Positions 3,214 to 41,299 of a stretch of DNA of 64,000 nt are shown here, one piece after another. Source of the stretch: an uncultured archaeon (GTDB lineage Archaea; Thermoproteota; Nitrososphaeria; Nitrososphaerales; Gagatemarchaeaceae); the NCBI GenBank assembly GCA_963799775.1, contig CAWCYD010000003.1, positions 1,728,001 through 1,792,000 of the forward strand. The letters are read 5' to 3'. A model generated the notes under the pieces. The model was not told the origin of the DNA. It was given only the letters and a program-made list of their open reading frames with translations, and did not search any database. The position numbers were made by a program, and so were the translations under genes. How positions within the stretch are numbered: position 1 is the stretch's first letter; every line of letters begins with the position of its first letter.

Positions 3214-5742
3214 ATGACGGCGCAGGGGTCGAAAGAAGACCTCTTGGCCAGGCTCGTTCACCCTGTCTTACCCGGACTGCAGCTCAATCGCATACTCTGC
3301 ATCTCGGATGACGAAGGTCTCAACTCTGAAATCAAGCAACAACTGAATGATTTCGGGTACAATCCCCGATTTGTTTCCTATTCTGGCCTGGGGACATTCG
3401 ATTCGAGGCTGGTACGCGGCAAGTCTATCGTGGCGATCTCCCCTACCGTGGCCATCAACGAGTCGCGCGCGAAGGGGATTGTGGATGGGGGCCTGGTAAG
3501 GCTGATGAGCGGCATGAACCTGCAGAGACATCCTAGTGTTTCGCGAGGTGGAGACGCCCTTTGTCATCAGTAGGGTCCAGTCCATCGAGCAACTTGTTCA
3601 TTGGATTTCTAAAGGAATTGATTCCCAGCCCGGGTTCTGGCTTGAAGAACTAGTATTGACACTCGTATACAAGAGGGGTTGCACTATGGTCGGAATACGG
3701 CGGCTCGTTGAAAATTCAGTCTGGGGACAACTCTTCCAAGACGATGGCAACTCAGTCGAGCAGGCCCGTGCAGAGCTCTTGCGGGAAGACCTGGTCACCG
3801 AAAAGAGCGGATACCTAGTTTGCAATGAGTTTGGACATGAGGTCGTTGAAGAAAACACTCCATTCGACACAGTCGATCGACCTGAGTCACGTGAACACCA
3901 TGAACCGGATGAATCGGATGGTCGAGAGGAATGGGGACCCGATGACGACTCCCGAGAGCGCAATTCCTACCTCACCGAAGTTGTGTTCGAAATCATAGAG
4001 AGATTTGGGTGGGTCACGCCAAACGACTTGGCCGCCGCTGCAGAGCGAGCCAGGGTGATGCCAGAGCGGTCGCTGGGAAAATCACGAAGGTTCCTGGAGA
4101 AGCTCGTCGCCAAAGGTGCTCTCGTCAAATCAAATTACAGCACCGGGAGGGGACGACCAAAGTCAGTCTATCGCGGGCGAGACTCGAGGACTGCAGATAT
4201 CTTGGAGAACACCTGCGGTGAGTGTGTCTTCTACTCCCGTGTTACGCGCCGATGCAGGCTGTGGTGGGCGCTATCGAGATTCAATGCGCCGGATGTCTAT
4301 GCAAGAGAGGAAGGATTGTCAACTGTCGCAAAAGACAAACTCCATCACTCCAACAAGAGGGTAGGTTCATTCAGCCACCTCCTGTGAAGAGTTCACGCCA
4401 AAGAAGAAAGACTATCCTCTGTTGAAGGCGCGTGACAAATGTGTTTCCTGCGGCCAAGAGATCGATTCACCCATCGCAAAGACCGTAAAATGCCCTACAT
4501 GCTTGACCGTGTACAAGCCTCTCGCCACGAAAATCCTCGTCCACTACGACTACGAACAGCTCTTCAAGAAACGTTACACAAAGTTAGCAGGCGTGCCGCC
4601 TCCCAGACAAGCACTAGTCCTGACCGAGCAAGAGGTTCATGGTAAGACGGACATCCGTGACACCATCGTTCTCTATCCCAATGAGAATGTTCGTCTTTCT
4701 GAGGAAGGCATGAAGGTGGAGCGAAGAGAGCACGAGTGGACCTTGGAGCCATACTCGAGGATCTACCAGGTAATCGACTATGGCTCGCTAGACGAGAAGG
4801 CTTGCTCGCAGCTTAGAGCCAAGGGGCTTCAGGTCGTGCAGACACATTTGCGGGAACTTCCGCAGCAACGCTTTCCCTTGTATCCATCCCGCGATTTCGT
4901 GGACAAACTACGCCTGCTAGAGCAAAAGTCACCCCTCAGAACAAGGCTCCTCGAGTCGATGATGCTCAGCACGGTCATCGCCACAAGGAGGATAGCGAGT
5001 CGCGGAGGTTCTCCACTCCAGGTCCATCATCAATCGCCAACTCCTCGAGTTCTCACGAATGAGAGCGGATAATGGGATGACACTGAGCAGGGCTCTTGCT
5101 TACGAGGCACGCGTCAACGCCTTCTACTGGAGCGTCTACAAGACGATGCTAAGGGTCTCTGGGCTCCAGTTCGAGAGCAGGGTGAGAGATAGGTTCGTTA
5201 GGGAGATTGTCTCCAGTATCCGGGCCAGAGCGAGGGGATACTCGCCCGCGAACGCAGCGATAAACTATCTGCATCAGAGGAGGCTGCTCTTGTGTCGACT
5301 AGCGAACGCTCGGACAGCTATAGGGTGGGTCGGCTGTGAAGGGGTTCTACATGTTGCGAAGAGAGAACCCAGCATAGGCCTGATGTTGGACCTTAGTGAT
5401 TCATTCCGGCTCGCCGACAGGGAGAGTTTCCTTAACTCCACTATGCGTATGGAGTTGTCAAGGGACGACTTCGTTGCTCGTCCGGGAAAGCACAGGGTCT
5501 GGTTCTTTCATCCGACGCAGGATGCGATTGGGAAGCTTGACTTGTGTGGGTCGAATGCGGATCAGTTTCGCGTTCAGCATGCAGGCAAAGAGATGGCTCT
5601 GACAGGAGCTTATGATCAGTTCGTGGCTTCTTTCGTAGACGCCGTGGACGCGATGGATTTAGAGCGCCTTCACACGTTCGTCTATGGAAATGCTGAGGAT
5701 TTGAAGTGGCTCGAGACGAAAGGCTTGGTTACCGTCTTGTGA
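3214..5742 (+). CDS. Multidomain Cas1-fusion protein, copy 1 (three frameshifts)
   Basis: Four consecutive ORFs align in order with the 916 aa protein at 33963..36713. Cas1 motifs: AYEARVNAFYW, NAAINYLHQ, EGVLH, LDLSDSFR. Confidence 0.8.
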
Positions 5743-12053: not shown

Positions 12054-12069
12054 CTTTGTGAATTGTGAA

Positions 12070-12161
12070 TGGACCGGAAGGGATTTGAACCCTTGACCTA
12101 AGGGAGTTTTTAGCTCTCTCCTGCGTGCGAGGCAGGCATTCTACCACTGAACTACCGGCCC
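12070..12161 (-). tRNA. tRNA-Ala(CGC) with a 20 nt intron in the variable loop (about 12098..12117)
   Basis: GGGCCGG acceptor stem, CCTGC-CT-CGC-AC-GCAGG anticodon arm, AAGGG-TTCAAAT-CCCTT T arm. Removing AGAGCTAAAAACTCCCTTAG restores the AGGTC variable loop. Confidence 0.9.
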
Positions 12162-12315
12162 ACCAATTGGAGCCATAAAGCCCCCGTTATTAAGAGCCTA
12201 GTCCTTCAGGTGCTGTCCAGGCTTCGTTTGGTCTAGCGTGAGATGCACTCGGTACCAAACCACAACTCGACAGTGCCACAGTTTGAGTTGAATTATAGGC
12301 GACCATCAGTCTATT

Positions 12316-33962: not shown

Positions 33963-36713
33963 TCAATGAAGAGCGACTGCGTATTCAAATGGTTTGAATG
34001 AATGGGACGTTCTGGCCTTCAGATTCTTAACCAGTGTTTGGACGGTGTCTTTGTAGGCTTCCATAAGCGTGATCTCTCGTTCTCCGCGGGACACAACAAC
34101 TCCGTCAGCTGCTTCGCCCACCGTTTCCAGCACTCCAACAACCTCCGGTCTCGGATAATAGAAGCGTGCCCCATGCCTGTCGGTGGAGCTGTAAAAGTCC
34201 CTCCAGTTCACGCTGAAATCCAGAACGGCCTCGAGCAGCTTCTCCCTGTCCGCGAACTTGAAGGGGTCGATCAAATCCAGATTCAACCCGAGGCCCTCAG
34301 GATTCCACCTCTTCCTGTGGAGGAACCCCTCCCCCGGGTCTGGGTCAAGGCCCAACTGCACGTTGACTGACCTAGCCTTGAAGAGCCTCCGTTGGTGCAG
34401 GTAGTTTATCGCCGCGTCCATCGCCGTGTACCCCCGCGCCCTTCCCGTGGGGGTCGTGACGTACTCCCTCACGAAGCGCGCTTTCTTGCGCGGCCCTGAC
34501 CTTTGCAGCACCGAATTGAGCGCGAGATGATAGGTGCCCCAGTACTCCTTCATCACCAATGCCTCATGGGCCAAGAACCTGCTCGGCGGCACCCGTTCGA
34601 GGCGTCGCATCACTGCCTTTTGCCTTGCGATAGACGCTTGGACGTGGCTCCCCTCAAGGCGAGCTAGAGACGCGACGCGCCCGGTGGCGTTTATCGCGCT
34701 CTGGGCCATCGCCAAGGCCATCCCGCGAATGAACTCGGGTTGAGAGCGAACGATATCCTCCACGAACGGGGCGATGTCGAACCTATCGACCGGTTTGGCT
34801 TCGATCATGGGACCGGCCGGCTTGGGAAGCGCTCTTACTGTCATGCCGGCGCTTGCAAGGATGTCAGTCTGCTCCTCGCCCACGATGCCGCCCAGGTCGA
34901 TCAGTGTGCTGCCCGCGAGCGGGATGGACTCGACCTTCCGCTTCTTGAAGATGTAGAGCTTCCCGTCCCTCGACAGCATCCTGTCGCCCGGGAATATCAT
35001 GACCGTCTTGGGCGCCTCTGCGGGATTCTCGTCCGTCTCTGGGGTGCGATGCTCGTCGTAGATGGCCCGCTCCACTATGCTAGGCGCAGAGCCCTGCCTC
35101 TCCTCGATGAGGCGCTTGAGGTCCGAGGAGGGATCGACGCCGGCGAGCGCCTCGTATCTCCTCTTGAACTCGTGCTCGTAGCTGGTAAGCACCTTCACCT
35201 TCTTCTGTCTGAGCGTGAAGTAGCGCGTCCTGCAGTTGCCGCACACCACCATCCCTCCCTTGGGCGGCGTCTCCGGCATCTCCTCGTAGCAGATGTCGCA
35301 TGACTCGGGAAGGGTCTTTCGGGTGTAGTCCCTTTTCTTGTCGACAAATTCGAGGCAGGCCGTCGAGTGCGGGCCTATCCGCCACGAGTTCCTCATCTTG
35401 TGGAGGTCGAAAGAGGAGAGTGGATGCGGTCCGTCCCTGGTCCATCTGTCGTGCCTGTGGCTGTAAGACTTGTTGAGGAGCCACCAGATCCTGCACTGGC
35501 GCCTAGCAGAGACGTAAAAGGCGCACTGCCCGCACTTGCTGGCCTGGTCGAACGGGAGCTTGCCGGGCATGTGGTAGACCGTTGCGGGGCGGCCTATCTC
35601 CTTGACCCAGGTCGTCTTTTGCAGCTTTCCATCGCGTGCTAGCCCCTCCGCTATTCCGCGCAGGGCGGGTCGGCTCGGGAGGAAGACGTGTAGCTCGGCT
35701 GGCTTCTCATAGTCAAAGTGGTCGTTGAAGATTTTTGGGACCGAGTCGCTCGTCTGGAGTACCTTCTGAGTCTCGGCGTTGACATAATCGAAGAGATTTT
35801 GGATGGTAAACCAGCCCTGCAGGTCGAGAAGGTTCTGGACGAGCACTTCGAGGTAGTCTTGGCCCAACTCGGAGGGGCCTTTTTCCTTCGACTGCCTGAA
35901 CACAGGCTTGGGAGGTTCCTCGGGATTCTCACGTGATTGCGCCACCTCCTCCGTCTCAAGAGCCTCGACCATCTCCCTGCCGTAGTATCCCGCGGTGTAG
36001 AGCCAGCGGGACATCGTGTCCACGAGAGCAGGCCTGCGAATGTTGTCTTCGAGCTCGTGCTCCCAGTTCTCGTTCAGTTTGGAGAAGAGAGTGCTCGCGG
36101 CGGCGAGATGCAGTCCCTGCTTGGAGAGGTGTGTGCCGAAGAGGAGCGAGACGATCGCTTCGCTTGCCTGCCTGGGTCCAAACTTCGCTTTCAGGTCGAT
36201 GACCTCCCCAGGTTGCCCCTCGGCAGCTAACCATTTCCTCGCAAGAGGCTGGAAGGATTCCTCTTCGACGACGATTGTCTTGTGGATGCTAGGCTTGGCG
36301 AGCAGTCGCGTGAGGAGCCCATCGATGTAACCCCTTCTTTCAGAGTCAATCATCCGGCCGAAAGGCGCAATCAGGACGACGATCTGAAAGGCATTGAACC
36401 TCTGCCACTTCATGAACCACCGGAACCACTCCCCGTAGTCAGCCACCAGGACACTCTTCAGCTTCTTGTGGCGCTGAACTCCTGTCCAGTGCCAGTTTTC
36501 ATCCGGGCTCAGGATGTCAACTTGTAGTTCGGAGGCATTGAGGAAGTCGTAGGTCGAATCCTCGTCGATGAAGATGGCGCAGTGGTCGTTCCTGTAGCTT
36601 CGTCTGCTGTCATAGATTCTGTTAGCCACATCTGAGGCCCAGGAAGCCTGTTGGTCGGGAAAGACGAATTCGATTCTTGAGAGAGTGCCGGGCGCGGCGA
36701 GTTGCCGACTCAA
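33963..36713 (-). CDS. Multidomain Cas1-fusion protein, copy 2 (intact, 916 aa)
   Basis: Cas1 N-terminal domain (TVMIFPGDRMLSRDGKLYI...SIPLAG) and catalytic domain (AHEALVMKEYW, DAAINYLHQ, GLDP..GEGFLH, LDLIDPFK) at about 33963..35010; preceded by wHTH (GRPATVY), CGQC..C and CDIC/CGNC motifs. Confidence 0.88.
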   Translation of the reverse strand: MSRQLAAPGTLSRIEFVFPDQQASWASDVANRIYDSRRSYRNDHCAIFIDEDSTYDFLNASELQVDILSPDENWHWTGVQRHKKLKSVLVADYGEWFRWFMKWQRFNAFQIVVLIAPFGRMIDSERRGYIDGLLTRLLAKPSIHKTIVVEEESFQPLARKWLAAEGQPGEVIDLKAKFGPRQASEAIVSLLFGTHLSKQGLHLAAASTLFSKLNENWEHELEDNIRRPALVDTMSRWLYTAGYYGREMVEALETEEVAQSRENPEEPPKPVFRQSKEKGPSELGQDYLEVLVQNLLDLQGWFTIQNLFDYVNAETQKVLQTSDSVPKIFNDHFDYEKPAELHVFLPSRPALRGIAEGLARDGKLQKTTWVKEIGRPATVYHMPGKLPFDQASKCGQCAFYVSARRQCRIWWLLNKSYSHRHDRWTRDGPHPLSSFDLHKMRNSWRIGPHSTACLEFVDKKRDYTRKTLPESCDICYEEMPETPPKGGMVVCGNCRTRYFTLRQKKVKVLTSYEHEFKRRYEALAGVDPSSDLKRLIEERQGSAPSIVERAIYDEHRTPETDENPAEAPKTVMIFPGDRMLSRDGKLYIFKKRKVESIPLAGSTLIDLGGIVGEEQTDILASAGMTVRALPKPAGPMIEAKPVDRFDIAPFVEDIVRSQPEFIRGMALAMAQSAINATGRVASLARLEGSHVQASIARQKAVMRRLERVPPSRFLAHEALVMKEYWGTYHLALNSVLQRSGPRKKARFVREYVTTPTGRARGYTAMDAAINYLHQRRLFKARSVNVQLGLDPDPGEGFLHRKRWNPEGLGLNLDLIDPFKFADREKLLEAVLDFSVNWRDFYSSTDRHGARFYYPRPEVVGVLETVGEAADGVVVSRGEREITLMEAYKDTVQTLVKNLKARTSHSFKPFEYAVALH

Positions 36714-37403: not shown

Positions 37404-37844
37404 ATGAACACCTCTTCTAGATGGATGACCCGAGCGCACGCCCTCATCCCCCTGACGGAGCAGGAGAGACAGGTCCGCGACCTCCTCCTCGAGCAGAGAC
37501 TGACGCACCTCACCCACGCGGTCTTCCCGAACGGGGGCAGGCTGATAGTGGTGGACTTCTTCCTCAGCGATCTCCGGACGGTGCTCGAGTGCTGGAAGAC
37601 CACGGCCAGGAGCGGGGTCGCATTGGGCTGGATGGAGAGGAACGCCGCGTTCATCGACGTGAAGTTCAGGCGCCTGAAGGGTATGCATCCGGGAATCCGC
37701 TGTGTCGCCCTCGCAGAGGCTCCACACGTAGAGCTAGCGACCCTGTCCAAGGTGATCGGGGAGATCCTGGTCCACGCCGACCATGTGGCGTACTCGATGG
37801 ATGGGTTCGGATATGCTCTTTCGCAGTTGGGAGGCGGAAAGTGA
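37404..37844 (+). CDS. Small PD-(D/E)XK/Vsr-like protein
   Basis: LTEQERQVRDLL...VVDFFL...VLECWK; TTAAATA 21 nt upstream of ATG; homologue of 2576..3029. Confidence 0.7.
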   Translation: MNTSSRWMTRAHALIPLTEQERQVRDLLLEQRLTHLTHAVFPNGGRLIVVDFFLSDLRTVLECWKTTARSGVALGWMERNAAFIDVKFRRLKGMHPGIRCVALAEAPHVELATLSKVIGEILVHADHVAYSMDGFGYALSQLGGGK

Positions 37845-39034
37845 TGCCGCGCCCGCCTTTCGGGAGCCCGGAATGGTTGCCCTACTTCGAGGAGATCGTG
37901 AGGACGAGCAAGACGACGAAGGAGGCGGTCAACAGGTTGGGCTACGCCACCCCTACAGTGGTCTACTATCACCTGAAGAAGTTCGGCATAGAGCGGCCGC
38001 CCGTTTGGTCCAAGCGTCCGTGGCTTCGGGAATTCATGCAGCGGAACATACCACAGGTGATCATCCCCACGACCACAGGTAGGCGTTGGGTCGCTGGATT
38101 GACCCAGGGGGAAGGATGCATTCAAGCTAGGTTCTTCACGCAATACGATGTGACGTATCTCAACCTCGACGTGTCGATGACAGACCCTGAACCTGTCTTC
38201 AGATTCTCTGATTATGTTGGGTTGTCGCACCCGTCAAAACCGGTCAAGAATCACGATTGGAAGCCCAATTGGCACAAGAATGTCTCGGGCCTACGGGCCT
38301 TCAGAGTTCTGCAAGAGATTCGACCCTTCTTACTGGGGGAGAAGTTGAAGGAGGCCGAGAAGGCGCTGTCCTTCTTCGCACCCCGTGGAATCCATTCGGG
38401 CTGCTTTGGGAATCTCGACGTCTGGCCGACGAAAGAATTTCCCTGGAGGACCAAGAGACGTGGTTCCGCTGCATCGACCTTGACAGGCACGCGGATAGAA
38501 TATCCTACGACGGGGCCTGATTCGTTCACCTTGAAATCACGACTCGAATCTGTAAACCCAACCACGGTCATTCATCCTTGGAATGTTGGGCTCGTGAATC
38601 GAGGCAAAGTTCCCGAGGTCATCATCACATCGACGGATGATAGGGCATGGGTTGGCGGCCTGGTCCAAGGCGAAGTGACCTTGGAATCTCATTACGTCAA
38701 GATGTCTGACTCGACGACGCTGATTCTTGGCCTGAGGATGACTGATCCGCATCCTGTCTTTAGGTTCGCCGACTTGTGCGGACTTCCAAGACCGAACCGA
38801 CCAACGGAAAGGCCCAATCGATGGCAGCCGATATGGAGGAAGGATGTCTCCGGGATAAGAGCGCTACGAGTTCTGAAGGAAATCCAGCCTTTCTTGGTTG
38901 GGCAGAAACTTCGCGAAGCCCAGAAGGCGTTCGATTTCTTCGACCTCAACGGCTACCGCCGAGGATGCTTTTACTCATCGGCAATTTGGCCCCCCGACGA
39001 ATTTCCCTTTAGGAGACATCCAGTGGAACACTGA
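37844..39034 (+). CDS. HTH plus tandem LAGLIDADG-like endonuclease domains
   Basis: Probable start at the TGATG overlap (MPRPPFG...). Two internal repeats WVAGLTQGEGCI...MTDPEPVFRF...SGLRAFRVL and WVGGLVQGEVTL...MTDPHPVFRF...SGIRALRVL. Confidence 0.7.
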   Translation: MPRPPFGSPEWLPYFEEIVRTSKTTKEAVNRLGYATPTVVYYHLKKFGIERPPVWSKRPWLREFMQRNIPQVIIPTTTGRRWVAGLTQGEGCIQARFFTQYDVTYLNLDVSMTDPEPVFRFSDYVGLSHPSKPVKNHDWKPNWHKNVSGLRAFRVLQEIRPFLLGEKLKEAEKALSFFAPRGIHSGCFGNLDVWPTKEFPWRTKRRGSAASTLTGTRIEYPTTGPDSFTLKSRLESVNPTTVIHPWNVGLVNRGKVPEVIITSTDDRAWVGGLVQGEVTLESHYVKMSDSTTLILGLRMTDPHPVFRFADLCGLPRPNRPTERPNRWQPIWRKDVSGIRALRVLKEIQPFLVGQKLREAQKAFDFFDLNGYRRGCFYSSAIWPPDEFPFRRHPVEH

Positions 39035-39042
39035 ATCTCAGG

Positions 39043-39063
39043 GGGTTCATTGCGCCTCCGCCG
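39043..39063 (+). repeat. Cassette-boundary direct repeat, copy 1
   Basis: GGGTTCATTGCGCCTCCGCCG. Confidence 0.8.
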
Positions 39064-39078
39064 AGATGTATTATCTAT

Positions 39079-39687
39079 TCACGGTGGAAAAGACCCCGAG
39101 TATCCTCCTTCGGCGGAGATGAGCGCTGCCCTCACTTCCTGCGCTGGACAACTTCGCGGTCCATTGGCCCCCGGGAAGTCGGCGTAGCTTACCAGGGGCG
39201 CCGGATATCCGACCGCCAGTTCCAGCGGCTGGCAGATCTGAAGCAGGGTGATGGCGTAGAAGCCTTTGGACTGGAGGCTGGCCGTGATTGTGTAAGCCAC
39301 GATGACGCTCTGACCTTGAGTGAGGTTGATGTAGGCCGGCGACGAGGAGATGCTGACGTCCGGCGCCGGAGCAAATTGTCCGGATGAGGTCCAGAGGTAG
39401 GCCGAGCCATAGGTAGGTTCCGAAAAGGTCTGGTTGAAGAAATCGGTGTAGGCAACGCAGACGACCATCGAGGAACCCGCGTCGATCACGAACGGAGGTA
39501 GCGCGTTTGGCGGTGACGGGCTGGATTGGTTGGATAAGATCGAAAAAGGATAGGACGCTGGGCATATCGAGGTCGATTGTGTGGCCGCCGTGGTTGGAGA
39601 CTGCAGCTGGTCTGCCAGACCCAGGGCCGCCACTCCAATGACTATCACAGCGATGAAGACGTAGGACGCCACCCGACTAGAATCCAT
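39079..39687 (-). CDS. Membrane-anchored secreted hypothetical protein
   Basis: TM helix; paralogue of 29847..30668. Confidence 0.65.
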   Translation of the reverse strand: MDSSRVASYVFIAVIVIGVAALGLADQLQSPTTAATQSTSICPASYPFSILSNQSSPSPPNALPPFVIDAGSSMVVCVAYTDFFNQTFSEPTYGSAYLWTSSGQFAPAPDVSISSSPAYINLTQGQSVIVAYTITASLQSKGFYAITLLQICQPLELAVGYPAPLVSYADFPGANGPRSCPAQEVRAALISAEGGYSGSFPP

Positions 39688-39766
39688 GCCCAGCCCCCGA
39701 CAGTGAAGAATCAGTAGACGCCGTCGTTATTCAACATTGAGAAGAGCGTGATTCGCCCATGCGTAA

Positions 39767-39792
39767 AGGGTTCGCTGCGCCTCCGCCGGGGC
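39767..39792 (+). repeat. Cassette-boundary direct repeat, copy 2
   Basis: AGGGTTCGCTGCGCCTCCGCCGGGGC. Confidence 0.85.
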
Positions 39793-39847
39793 ATCGTCCT
39801 TGACAGAGTTTATGGGGAGGCGACCAGGAGATTCCACGAAGGGCTCG

Positions 39848-40561
39848 ATGAACGAGAAGGCAATCTTCGCATTCATTATCGTGGCGGGCGTCGTGGCCGT
39901 CGGGTTTGTTGGAATGACCCCGACCAGCACGATAACCCAGACCAGCGCGCTGATCCGGTCAAGCACGGTAGCGGTTCCCTCGAACGTCTCGGCTAGTAAC
40001 TCAACCATCCAATCGACGAATCAGTCAACCAATCAGTCGTCATCAACCTCCATACAATACCCGTTGGTGTGGCAGTCGACTTCCCCAACGGTATGTGACA
40101 TGAATTCATTCTGCGTCGTTGCAACGCTCGGGTTCTCCGGTCAGACGGCGACTGCGAGCGAATCGGCAACCGCGATCACGGGAAGCAATGGAACGACCAT
40201 AGTCGTCTCATCGACCACGACTATCATCAGGACATCACCGTATCCTCAAACAACCGTGATCGAGCCTCCTCAGAACACATCTTACGTAGTCGTGGTGACC
40301 GCATTCGTTCAAGACGCAGTGACTGGCCAGAACGTCACCACGAGCAGCGGGCAATCTTCGCTTGGGGCGGGCTGTGACATACAGCCATCAGGATTTACCC
40401 ACTGCATCATCAGCGCCCCTTCAGGATTGCCTTCCGGAACGTACAAAGTCACTGTATTCGTAACGAAGGAATACAATCCTTGTTCAATACGCGTGGCCGG
40501 CTATCCCTGCACATCACAATTGCTCGCACCACCGAGCCAAACGATCACTATAACGGAGTGA
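39848..40561 (+). CDS. Membrane-anchored S/T-rich secreted protein
   Basis: MNEKAIFAFIIVAGVVAVG TM helix, S/T linker, Cys pairs. Confidence 0.65.
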   Translation: MNEKAIFAFIIVAGVVAVGFVGMTPTSTITQTSALIRSSTVAVPSNVSASNSTIQSTNQSTNQSSSTSIQYPLVWQSTSPTVCDMNSFCVVATLGFSGQTATASESATAITGSNGTTIVVSSTTTIIRTSPYPQTTVIEPPQNTSYVVVVTAFVQDAVTGQNVTTSSGQSSLGAGCDIQPSGFTHCIISAPSGLPSGTYKVTVFVTKEYNPCSIRVAGYPCTSQLLAPPSQTITITE

Positions 40562-40636
40562 CCGAGAGTTGCGGGTTGCTCTAGCTCCCGCTAGTGTTGT
40601 CAAAATGAAAGTAGGCAGGGCATAGTTGCCATACAC

Positions 40637-40662
40637 AGGGTTAATTGCGCCTCCGCCGGGGC
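40637..40662 (+). repeat. Cassette-boundary direct repeat, copy 3
   Basis: AGGGTTAATTGCGCCTCCGCCGGGGC; 23/26 identical to copy 2. Confidence 0.85.
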
Positions 40663-40770
40663 GTTTTGCTGATGCAATGAGTGTCATCACCGAGCGTTAC
40701 CATTGCAGTGGAATTTGTTTGAACGAAGCTTAATTAGGGGTGAATCAGCCGGCGCCCCATTAAAGAGGTG

Positions 40771-41299
40771 ATGGGGGGTCCACGGAGCCAACTATAGAGC
40801 TGCGAAGTCCATGTTCTACAACAAGAAGTTCGCCCCCGGCACCCCCAATCCCAAGGTCGCGAGGTTCACCACAGGCAAGTTCAGGGGCGATTACGATTAC
40901 AAGCTTGAGCTAGTCGCTACGACCCGGCTCCAGATAAGGAGCAACGCACTTGAGGCCGCGAGGGTGGCGGCCAGCAAGAAGCTCACCCTCGTCGGCGAGG
41001 ACAACTTCTACCTTCGGGTGGTCTCGTATCCTTTTGTCGTCATGCGGGAGAACAAGATGATCGCCACGGCGGGCGCAGACAGGCTCCAGGAGGGGATGCG
41101 CAAGGCCTTCGGCAAGCCCATAGGCGTCGCGGCAAGGGTCTACATCGGCAGCGTCATCTTGGACGTCCTGGTCAAAGCCGAGAACCTGGACAAGGCAAAG
41201 GCCGCGATGAAGGCGGCGACGACCAAGCTGCCACTGAAGTACAAGGTGGTCGTAACTCCATTAGAGAAGAAGGTCGAAGCGGAAGCGGCGGCTGTTTGA
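40771..41299 (+). CDS. rpl10e: 50S ribosomal protein uL16 (L10e); start approximate
   Basis: HGANYR..., QIRSNALEAAR, RENKMIATAGADRLQEGMRKAFGKP. Confidence 0.95.

Follow-up and report, generated by a model that had tools for sequence, protein, structure and literature searches.

In integrative mobile elements exploiting Xer recombination (IMEX), as in the pdif modules of Acinetobacter plasmids, a few genes lie between sites for an Xer-type recombinase whose own gene is elsewhere; pdif sites alternate in orientation. At tRNA genes, additive flexible genomic islands and tycheposon-type islands carry recurring copies of the last bases of the tRNA gene, which separate variable cargo (PMC10872708, available part of the text). 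Casposons insert in tandem at the 3′ ends of genes in Thaumarchaeota (PMC6563490, available part of the text, in which the term rRNA has 0 occurrences). Here we describe a small repeat array in a 64,000-nucleotide (nt) stretch of DNA, referred to as the window, from an uncultured archaeon of the family Gagatemarchaeaceae (assembly GCA_963799775.1, contig CAWCYD010000003.1, positions 1,728,001 to 1,792,000 of the forward strand). Its three 26-nt repeats, which bound two single-gene cassettes, appear to be a small outpost (satellite) of a genus-wide cassette system. We consider it probable, though well short of certain, that this is an integron-like, additive-island system that docks at the trailer of the 23S rRNA gene, with an Xer-like tyrosine recombinase (Int) as the likely enzyme. 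All the evidence is comparative.

The arrays share many properties with sedentary chromosomal integrons (IntI, attI, attC) and with clusters of attC sites lacking integrases (CALINs). Both form long co-oriented arrays of small, mostly single-gene cassettes whose functions are mostly unknown, with toxin–antitoxin pairs and acetyltransferases among them. In both, the sites are homogeneous within a lineage, cassette order and content vary between relatives, and an Xer-related recombinase lies by some arrays while many arrays have no adjacent integrase. The arrangement of an integron, co-oriented and site-bounded cassettes that vary between relatives, is found here, but its two defining parts, the integron integrase and attC, are not. 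The site is not attC, Int runs in the direction of the cassettes and has a DnaJ-domain gene as its partner, the 23S rRNA trailer serves as the primary site, and the host is an archaeon of the Nitrososphaerota. Int was not recognized as an integron integrase, scoring 40.3 bits vs. 265 with the NCBIfam model integrase_gron and 16 vs. 435 with PRK15417. In the available text of the archaeal-integron paper (PMC9668308), "Nitrososphaer", "Thaumarchaeo" and "rRNA" each have 0 occurrences.

The closest logic is that of the tRNA-gene islands. In both cases direct repeats copy the 3′ end region of a gene for a stable RNA, the cargo between them varies, a set location in the chromosome is hypervariable in content, and tyrosine recombinases occur. 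However, the anchor here is the rRNA operon, with the core just outside the mature RNA, in the processing stem. The units are also very small (median 946 nt) and have no integrase of their own, and there are satellite arrays beside housekeeping genes as well as a dedicated Int-DnaJ platform. Clustered regularly interspaced short palindromic repeats (CRISPR) and casposons resemble the arrays in their direct repeats of about 26 nt and unique inserts, and a protein with a weak match to Cas1 is encoded 2.3 kb away in the window. They differ in that the inserts here are genes of 0.4–10 kb, the arms of the repeats are cassette-specific, no terminal inverted repeats were seen by reading, and the Cas1-like gene was not found in array-bearing genomes (see below). 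With IMEX and pdif the likeness lies in the small site-bounded modules and in an 11-5-11 dyad seen by eye; unlike pdif sites, the sites here are all direct. In the literature, as far as article text was available, we found no earlier account of archaeal repeat arrays that follow the 23S rRNA gene; supplementary tables, such as the attC tables of PMC9668308, lay outside this search. A word search of the available text of PMC10640624 gave 0 occurrences of integron, integrase, cassette, repeat and mobile.

Repeat arrays and the 23S rRNA trailer

The sequence GGGTTNNNTGCGCCTCCGCCG is present three times in the window (39043–39063, 39768–39788 and 40638–40658), always on the plus strand and with 0 mismatches. 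Its chance expectation is 0, as no match was found in 100 dinucleotide-preserving shuffles. The original prediction, which was made from the window alone, had described three direct repeats; they are real and all co-oriented, but two of the starts given, 39767 and 40637, are one base off. Taken as 26-nt cores on the minus strand, the repeats lie at 39043–39068 (repeat 1, separating the stop of a LAGLIDADG-like gene from cassette A), 39768–39793 (repeat 2, between cassettes A and B) and 40638–40663 (repeat 3, between cassette B and the promoter region of rpl10e), with 4, 2 and 2 mismatches to the genome consensus, respectively. Repeat 1 begins 8 nt past the stop codon of the open reading frame (ORF) at 37421–39034, in agreement with the prediction, and lacks an extended arm toward this chromosomal gene; its minus strand resembles the trailer at the 3′ end of the 23S rRNA. 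Repeat 3 has an extended arm on the minus strand (40575–40637, CTAGCTCCCGCTAG ... AAAATG ... GGGCATAGTTGCCATACACA), which is like the 23S trailer beyond the core and moves with cassette B, as the homology to a relative described below continues through the arm. It had also been predicted that each interval holds one gene and that the two are in opposite orientations. This was confirmed, with a single long ORF in each interval: 39079–39687 on the minus strand in cassette A and 39800–40561 on the plus strand in cassette B.

The repeat is not confined to the window. In the source genome, a 2.47-Mb assembly designated G000, the exact 13-mer TGCGCCTCCGCCG occurs 30 times and its reversed control 0 times, and with up to 6 mismatches allowed, the 26-nt consensus GGGTTCATTGCGCCTCCGCCGGGGCA is found 64 times and the reversed motif 0 times. 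The main array consists of 41 co-oriented copies spread over 54 kb (contig C3:1867445–1921249), and its 40 intervals range from 391 to 10280 nt with a median of 946.5. Satellites comprise 7 copies at C3:1608655–1618727 and 3 copies each at C3:1355613–1357135, at C3:122624–126218 and in the window; the remaining copies are found as 2 each at two places and as 3 singletons. All the arrays in G000 are strictly co-oriented. A common dispersed repeat had been named in advance as the outcome that would speak against the original prediction. Formally the motif is one, with 64 copies, but the other copies form arrays of the same kind and the finding is therefore widened rather than refuted. Information content is about 1.5–2 bits per position in the core and no more than 0.3 in the arms, many copies are alike beyond the core on both sides, and repeat quality shows no gradient away from the 23S end. 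The exact 21-mer is carried by at least 120 metagenome contigs, and there were 0 matches to it in viral contigs.

The comparison panel consisted of 22 other genomes of the genus, which are related to G000 at the species level or more distantly (58–88% identity in rpl10e). The core 15-mer, allowing 1 mismatch, was found in 21 of them; of 16 genomes representing as many further families of the order, 0 had it. G007, which is assembled as one contig, has 27 of its 28 copies in a single 59-kb array, and the arrays of G014 and G021 are 126 kb and 74 kb long. The 23S end and the start of the array are 2 nt apart in G007 and G014 and only a few nt apart in G021. An array also stands behind the 23S gene of G060, which belongs to another genus of the family. 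In that genome (C4:2718–32131), one block of sites follows the orientation of the rRNA genes and another, of 9 sites, is inverted, as would be expected from an inversion between sites.

The nature of the repeat is indicated by its position. In G000, the 16S and 23S rRNA genes, identified with Rfam, immediately adjoin the main array, and the first repeat is 2 nt past the end of the large subunit gene. Read in the rRNA direction, the repeat is TGCCCCGGCGGAGGCGCAATGAACCC, the opening bases of the 23S trailer. G000 also has 11 additional partial copies of the terminal 32–77 nt of the 23S gene (10 in the main array on C3 and 1 on contig C2). About a dozen repeats are flanked on one side by a copy of the 23S end, and the extra sequence on the other side of repeats matches the trailer further downstream. 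The arrangement is that of attachment (att) sites at stable RNA genes: direct repeats copy the 3′ end region of the RNA gene, and the first copy is the native one. The trailer pairs with the 5′ flank of the 23S gene at −72.5 kcal/mol, compared to −43.1 ± 3.3 kcal/mol in 200 shuffles, and a bulge-helix-bulge-like geometry could be read by eye (a GCGC/GCGC helix with AAT and AAGCA bulges). The central element of the trailer, GGCGCAATGAACCCTATGCACGGCGA, is recognizable behind the 23S gene in other families of the order. Because of the 23S-adjacent position, the trailer match, the pairing with the 5′ flank and the order-wide element, the repeat is best read as the 3′ strand of the native processing stem of the pre-rRNA. 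Only this 3′ strand is repeated, and its 5′ partner is single-copy in G000. A tRNA origin of the repeat was rejected, since the sole tRNA in the window is far from the repeats. That tRNA, a tRNA-Ala(CGC) at 12069–12162 on the minus strand, is 94 nt in length, which is longer than a plain tRNA, and may hold an intron. The 23S gene itself contains a group I intron (Rfam, 77.5 bits; L009 7517–7772, G000 C3:1865517–1865772).

Several properties of other known sites were looked for in the repeat. An attC-like hairpin was not supported, as 0 of 11 sites folded more stably than shuffles as single-stranded DNA (z −1.20 to +2.06); the core reads GTTCATT and there is no GTTRRRY. RNAalifold gave no consensus RNA structure for 49 sites on either strand (−1.9 and 0.0). 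A small hairpin, GGCA..TGCC or GGCGA..TCGCC, is seen by eye in the arm. The core together with the next 16 nt forms an imperfect 11-5-11 dyad, also read by eye, like an Xer or lox-type site; it is only a lead because in the native copy these bases are also under constraint from rRNA processing. On the reverse strand of the repeat, the core has an ATG 4 nt past a GGAGG. A small conserved peptide starting at this ATG was rejected, as indels of 1–2 nt come after it and, at repeat 1, the frame stays open for just 13 codons. A dif-like or terminus role of the site was also considered and set aside, since the GC-skew plateau is too vague to place the terminus. The cumulative GC skew of C3 in G000 is lowest near 0.53 Mb and peaks broadly near 1.80 Mb, in the vicinity of the window and of the region with the rRNA genes and array.

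Contents and movement of the cassettes

The 84 ORFs scanned in the main array include 2 PIN proteins, VapB and MazE antitoxins, 2 GNAT acetyltransferases and helix-turn-helix (HTH) regulators, as well as a TBP paralogue, CorA, an aldo-keto reductase, a thermopsin, an FtsZ-HTH fusion, AIPR/AbiU and Csa3/CARF-like proteins. Most have no family match. There is one DDE transposase and no Phage_integrase among the matches listed (25 of 33 families). In the FtsZ-HTH fusion, an ArsR-type HTH is located between the GTPase and C-terminal domains of an FtsZ/tubulin GTPase (L011 11434–12894, G000 C3:1909434–1910894). The longest ORF of an interval follows the rRNA direction in 26 intervals and the opposite direction in 11, and 3 intervals have no ORF of at least 70 amino acids.

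The gene of cassette A in the window encodes 202 amino acids, and its direction is that of the trailer-like reading of the repeats, the usual cassette orientation. Translation of the cassette B gene from a TTG start gives 253 amino acids, of which residues 5 and 17 are Met. The two proteins are alike in being Ser/Thr-rich and in having a hydrophobic segment at the N-terminus, and neither had a family match in Pfam or NCBIfam. Only distant homologues of cassette A (31–43%) were found, in 4 of 22 relatives; 4 of the 5 places that were inspected are outside repeat arrays, and the fifth, a locus of G020, has two repeats.

Five independent lines of comparison indicate that the intervals are mobile cassettes. 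At the rpl10e locus, the order of the Cas1-like gene, the LAGLIDADG-like gene, rpl10e and dph2 is retained across the genus, and the number of cassettes between the same two genes upstream of rpl10e is 0, 1 or 2. Seven relatives (G018, G011, G005, G001, G007, G010 and G012) have an empty locus with a gap of about 85–150 nt and no repeat; a 9-nt likeness inside a hairpin in G011 was not counted as one. G022 has 2 repeats and 1 unrelated cassette, and G000 has 3 repeats and 2 cassettes. Cassette B is found elsewhere in a relative. Its mobile unit (39751–40662) aligns with L089 1454–2368 of G018 at 87.4% identity over 922 nt; the alignment both starts and ends in repeats, and there is no match outside them. 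The copy in G018, with 85% amino acid identity, is in a four-site array 76 kb from that genome's own empty rpl10e locus. Serial insertion of cassettes at one site, giving n cassettes and n+1 repeats, had been proposed in the original prediction, and both the counts at rpl10e and the presence of cassette B in another array support it.

A second locus, at which genes for Int and a DnaJ-domain protein precede the repeats, shows the exchange of cassettes between conserved flanks. With letters that belong to this locus and are separate from those of the window, G020 has cassettes A and B, L073 has B, and G000 has A and C, and the flanks are syntenic in all three genomes. Homology at this locus starts and stops at the 26-nt core. 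Because the homology of the flank ends on one side of the core and that of the cassette on the other, the crossover must be in the core or at its edge. Within G000, a 1.43-kb cassette is duplicated between a satellite and the main array (92.7% identity), ending in repeats at both ends in the satellite copy and at one end in the main-array copy. The main arrays of G000 and G007 have five cassettes in common, at 45–80% amino acid identity and with one order swap; most cassettes are not shared, and the flank on the rRNA side is fully syntenic.

Sequencing runs were available as assembled contigs of four runs only, the best of which covers 0.35 of the words. Contig depth was 104–560 in the bin of repeat 3, 7–24 in the bins of repeats 1 and 2, and 0–27 elsewhere, as contigs from many contexts pile up at repeat positions. 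Contig joints were seen at 39063>40640 and 39789>40637. They prove nothing, because their sides are only 21–24 nt long and lie inside the repeat.

Candidate enzymes and alternative explanations

In the model that we favor, the repeat would be a site-specific recombination site of the att type, copied from the DNA just past the 23S rRNA gene. Cassettes of 1–3 genes would carry one copy of the site each, with arms that imitate the 23S end on one side and the trailer on the other. Recombination of a cassette with a resident copy, presumably through circular intermediates and between double-stranded sites, would leave two flanking copies, and repetition of this would build co-oriented arrays; the process may still be active today. 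The primary dock would be the native trailer behind the 23S gene, which in G000 has grown to 41 sites and 54 kb. Use of secondary sites would give rise to satellite arrays, and the rpl10e array of the window, with its three repeats and two cassettes, would be one of these. The crossover would fall within the 26-nt core or at its edge. The enzyme would be an Xer-like tyrosine recombinase with a C-terminal zinc ribbon, one subfamily of which is encoded with a DnaJ-domain protein directly upstream of satellites.

Proteins of the Int family are about 350–450 amino acids long and have a SAM-like N-domain, a Phage_integrase catalytic domain and the C-terminal zinc ribbon. The best NCBIfam model is archaeal XerA, at 96 bits vs. 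a cut-off of 220. At E≤1e-20, members were detected in 11 of the 23 genomes that represent the genus. In one subfamily, the DnaJ-domain gene stands between Int and the start of a repeat array. This order occurs in 5 loci (twice in G000 and once each in G020, G017 and G011), and the distance to the first repeat is 54–133 nt in 4 of them and 1.3 kb in the fifth. A second tyrosine recombinase, not related to this family, is placed in the same way beside an array of six sites in G021. The single PF00589 match of G007 belongs to the Int family, and the PF00589 matches of G000 are all outside the main array. Taken together, the comparisons make an Xer-like tyrosine recombinase the likely acting enzyme, ahead of the Cas1-like fusion discussed below. 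Two further observations concern the recombinases. The Int-DnaJ segment is 93.6% identical in DNA between G000 (C3:120664–122621) and L073 (9827–11788), with 72–78% in the flanks of the same locus, which suggests that the module was recently transferred or converted between the two species. Also, three very small contigs of G010 (C225, C264 and C280) have several Phage_integrase matches (E 1e-37 to 1e-40) that are unlike those of other genomes of the genus and may come from a different mobile element or from contamination.

A number of observations weigh against a cassette system run by Int. The Int family was not found in 12 of the 23 genomes of the genus, all of which are incomplete and several of which have repeats; among the repeat-bearing genomes without it are G018, G009, G010, G022, G003 and G002 (54–87% complete), and G009 has no PF00589 match at all. 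In G007, Int is 36 kb from the array and has no DnaJ partner. No recombinase was found at either end of the G000 main array among the 10 flank ORFs, which include a thermosome subunit, an AIPR protein, an FtsZ-HTH protein and unknowns. The "core" Int of G007, G014 and G021 has conserved synteny, no DnaJ and no nearby repeats, and may be a housekeeping Xer. Eleven of the 41 cores in the main array fall within mechanically called ORFs of at least 70 amino acids, and the longest ORF is in the opposite orientation in 11 of 37 intervals. In G017, the LAGLIDADG-like gene and rpl10e are separated by a 2.85-kb insert (L024 10164–13013) that contains three ORFs but no repeat; variation at the rpl10e locus is not all repeat-bounded. 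Finally, no circle, empty-site variant or excision junction was seen in the assembled contigs of the four runs.

Some of these points can be accommodated if the cassettes are real and are moved by general homologous recombination or by another enzyme, with the nearby recombinases derived from unrelated integrated elements. The repeats, with their 26-nt core and up to about 150 nt of likeness to the 23S end and trailer, would then be mere portable homology. This would fit the lack of a recombinase at the main arrays and of Int in 12 of the 23 genomes, and the long trailer-like and 23S-like arms at many sites would supply the homology. However, homology breaks at the 26-nt core and is not scattered through the arms, the core is conserved at about 1.5–2 bits per position against at most 0.3 in the arms, all the arrays are strictly co-oriented, and the Int-DnaJ geometry is repeated beside arrays in 5 loci. 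We regard this explanation as unlikely. Another possibility is that the repeat is mainly an RNA-level or regulatory signal for processing, termination or insulation, taken from the pre-rRNA stem, and that the arrays reflect selection for this signal. The sequence is the strand of a native processing stem and is conserved across the order for that role, the longest ORF follows the rRNA direction in 26 intervals vs. 11, and the core has GGAGG with an ATG 4 nt on. Against this, the 3′ strand alone is repeated and its 5′ partner occurs once, and the ATG opens no conserved frame, being followed by indels of 1–2 nt. The n+1 repeats, the repeat-to-repeat translocation and the cassette swaps between conserved flanks would also be left unexplained. 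As the main role of the repeat, a signal of this kind is therefore very unlikely, but it is compatible with recombination as a second role, and the two can coexist.

The original prediction had tentatively linked the array in the window, by proximity, to a Cas1 fusion, which would integrate the cassettes and duplicate the repeat as in CRISPR adaptation or casposon insertion. The fusion is a protein of 916 amino acids (33963–36713, minus strand) encoded 2.3 kb from the array. Its C-terminal region matches Pfam Cas_Cas1 at E 0.003, below the Pfam cut-off, in 1 of 5 orthologues, and no match was obtained for the N-terminal 660 amino acids. No Cas1 was found when the protein and a 5-member profile were compared with PDB sequences, and an AlphaFold model of the C-terminal 276 amino acids has a predicted local distance difference test (pLDDT) score of 45. 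The Cas1 label is weak, and the Cas1 fold is unconfirmed. The length of the repeat, 26 nt, is within the CRISPR range, and in G022 and G017 repeats lie directly past the stop of the fusion gene. However, a search for the fusion gave 0 candidates in two array-bearing genomes, G018 with its 20 motif matches and G007, a single contig that has 28 sites and a 59-kb array. The gene is beside the LAGLIDADG-like gene and rpl10e in 10 of 22 relatives, and this synteny persists where cassettes are absent. No tested locus ties the fusion to the main arrays. The lack of a gradient in repeat quality from the 23S end and of terminal inverted repeats seen by reading also speaks against it, and the cassette-specific arms that imitate the 23S gene would not be expected from target duplication. 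A role of the fusion as the cassette integrator is unlikely on these comparisons, and array formation by Cas1-type repeat duplication seems extremely improbable. Of the original comparison to a CRISPR- or integron-like array, the integron architecture stands and the CRISPR/Cas1 part does not. A repeat array beside a Cas1-like gene need not be Cas1's product.

Neighboring genes and implications for the genus

The left chromosomal flank of the array in the window is the LAGLIDADG-like gene (37421–39034, plus strand), which is outside the cassette system and adjoins rpl10e genus-wide, whether cassettes are present or absent. Its product of 537 amino acids has no family match itself, and LAGLIDADG_3 was matched at E 7.5e-4 in 1 of 6 orthologues. 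Against the PDB, the protein gave 0 matches and its profile one match at E 0.98. The LAGLIDADG label is weak. This free-standing gene beside rpl10e is 100 kb from the 23S gene that bears the intron. The right flank is rpl10e itself (40811–41299, plus strand), which encodes ribosomal protein L10e (Pfam Ribosomal_L16, E 2.3e-25). The Cas1-like fusion contains a Cys-rich stretch at about residues 394–495, and its alignment has a conserved motif that we take to be like GFLH...DLIDPF. Shorter paralogues of its C-terminal region are encoded at 5056–5685 of the window on the plus strand and at G000 C3:1829761–1831377.

The Nitrososphaerota of group I.1c abound in acid soils and peat and are uncultured. 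The system described here would be a case of archaeal cassette stacking that is independent of bacterial-type integron parts. Its new features would be the docking site, the trailer of the rRNA operon, and the candidate enzyme pair of an Xer-like Int and a J-domain protein. We also considered whether a single 26-nt element could serve an archaeal platform for cassette expression in two ways, as the site of DNA recombination and as the signal for RNA processing, with the dock chosen for this function as well as for its conservation, which at present we regard as quite unlikely. If true, cassettes behind the 23S gene, most of which run in its direction, would be transcribed by read-through from the rRNA promoter, the repeats would punctuate the RNA through cutting or 3′-end formation, and Int and its DnaJ partner would represent a novel type of enzyme set for capturing cassettes. 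The proposed cassette system would account for the hypervariable region, 54–126 kb long, that each of the four genomes with an examined main array has, a region that houses defense genes, toxin–antitoxin pairs, regulators and putatively secreted proteins. The 26-nt site may serve as a simple probe for the flexible gene pool of these archaea in metagenomes.

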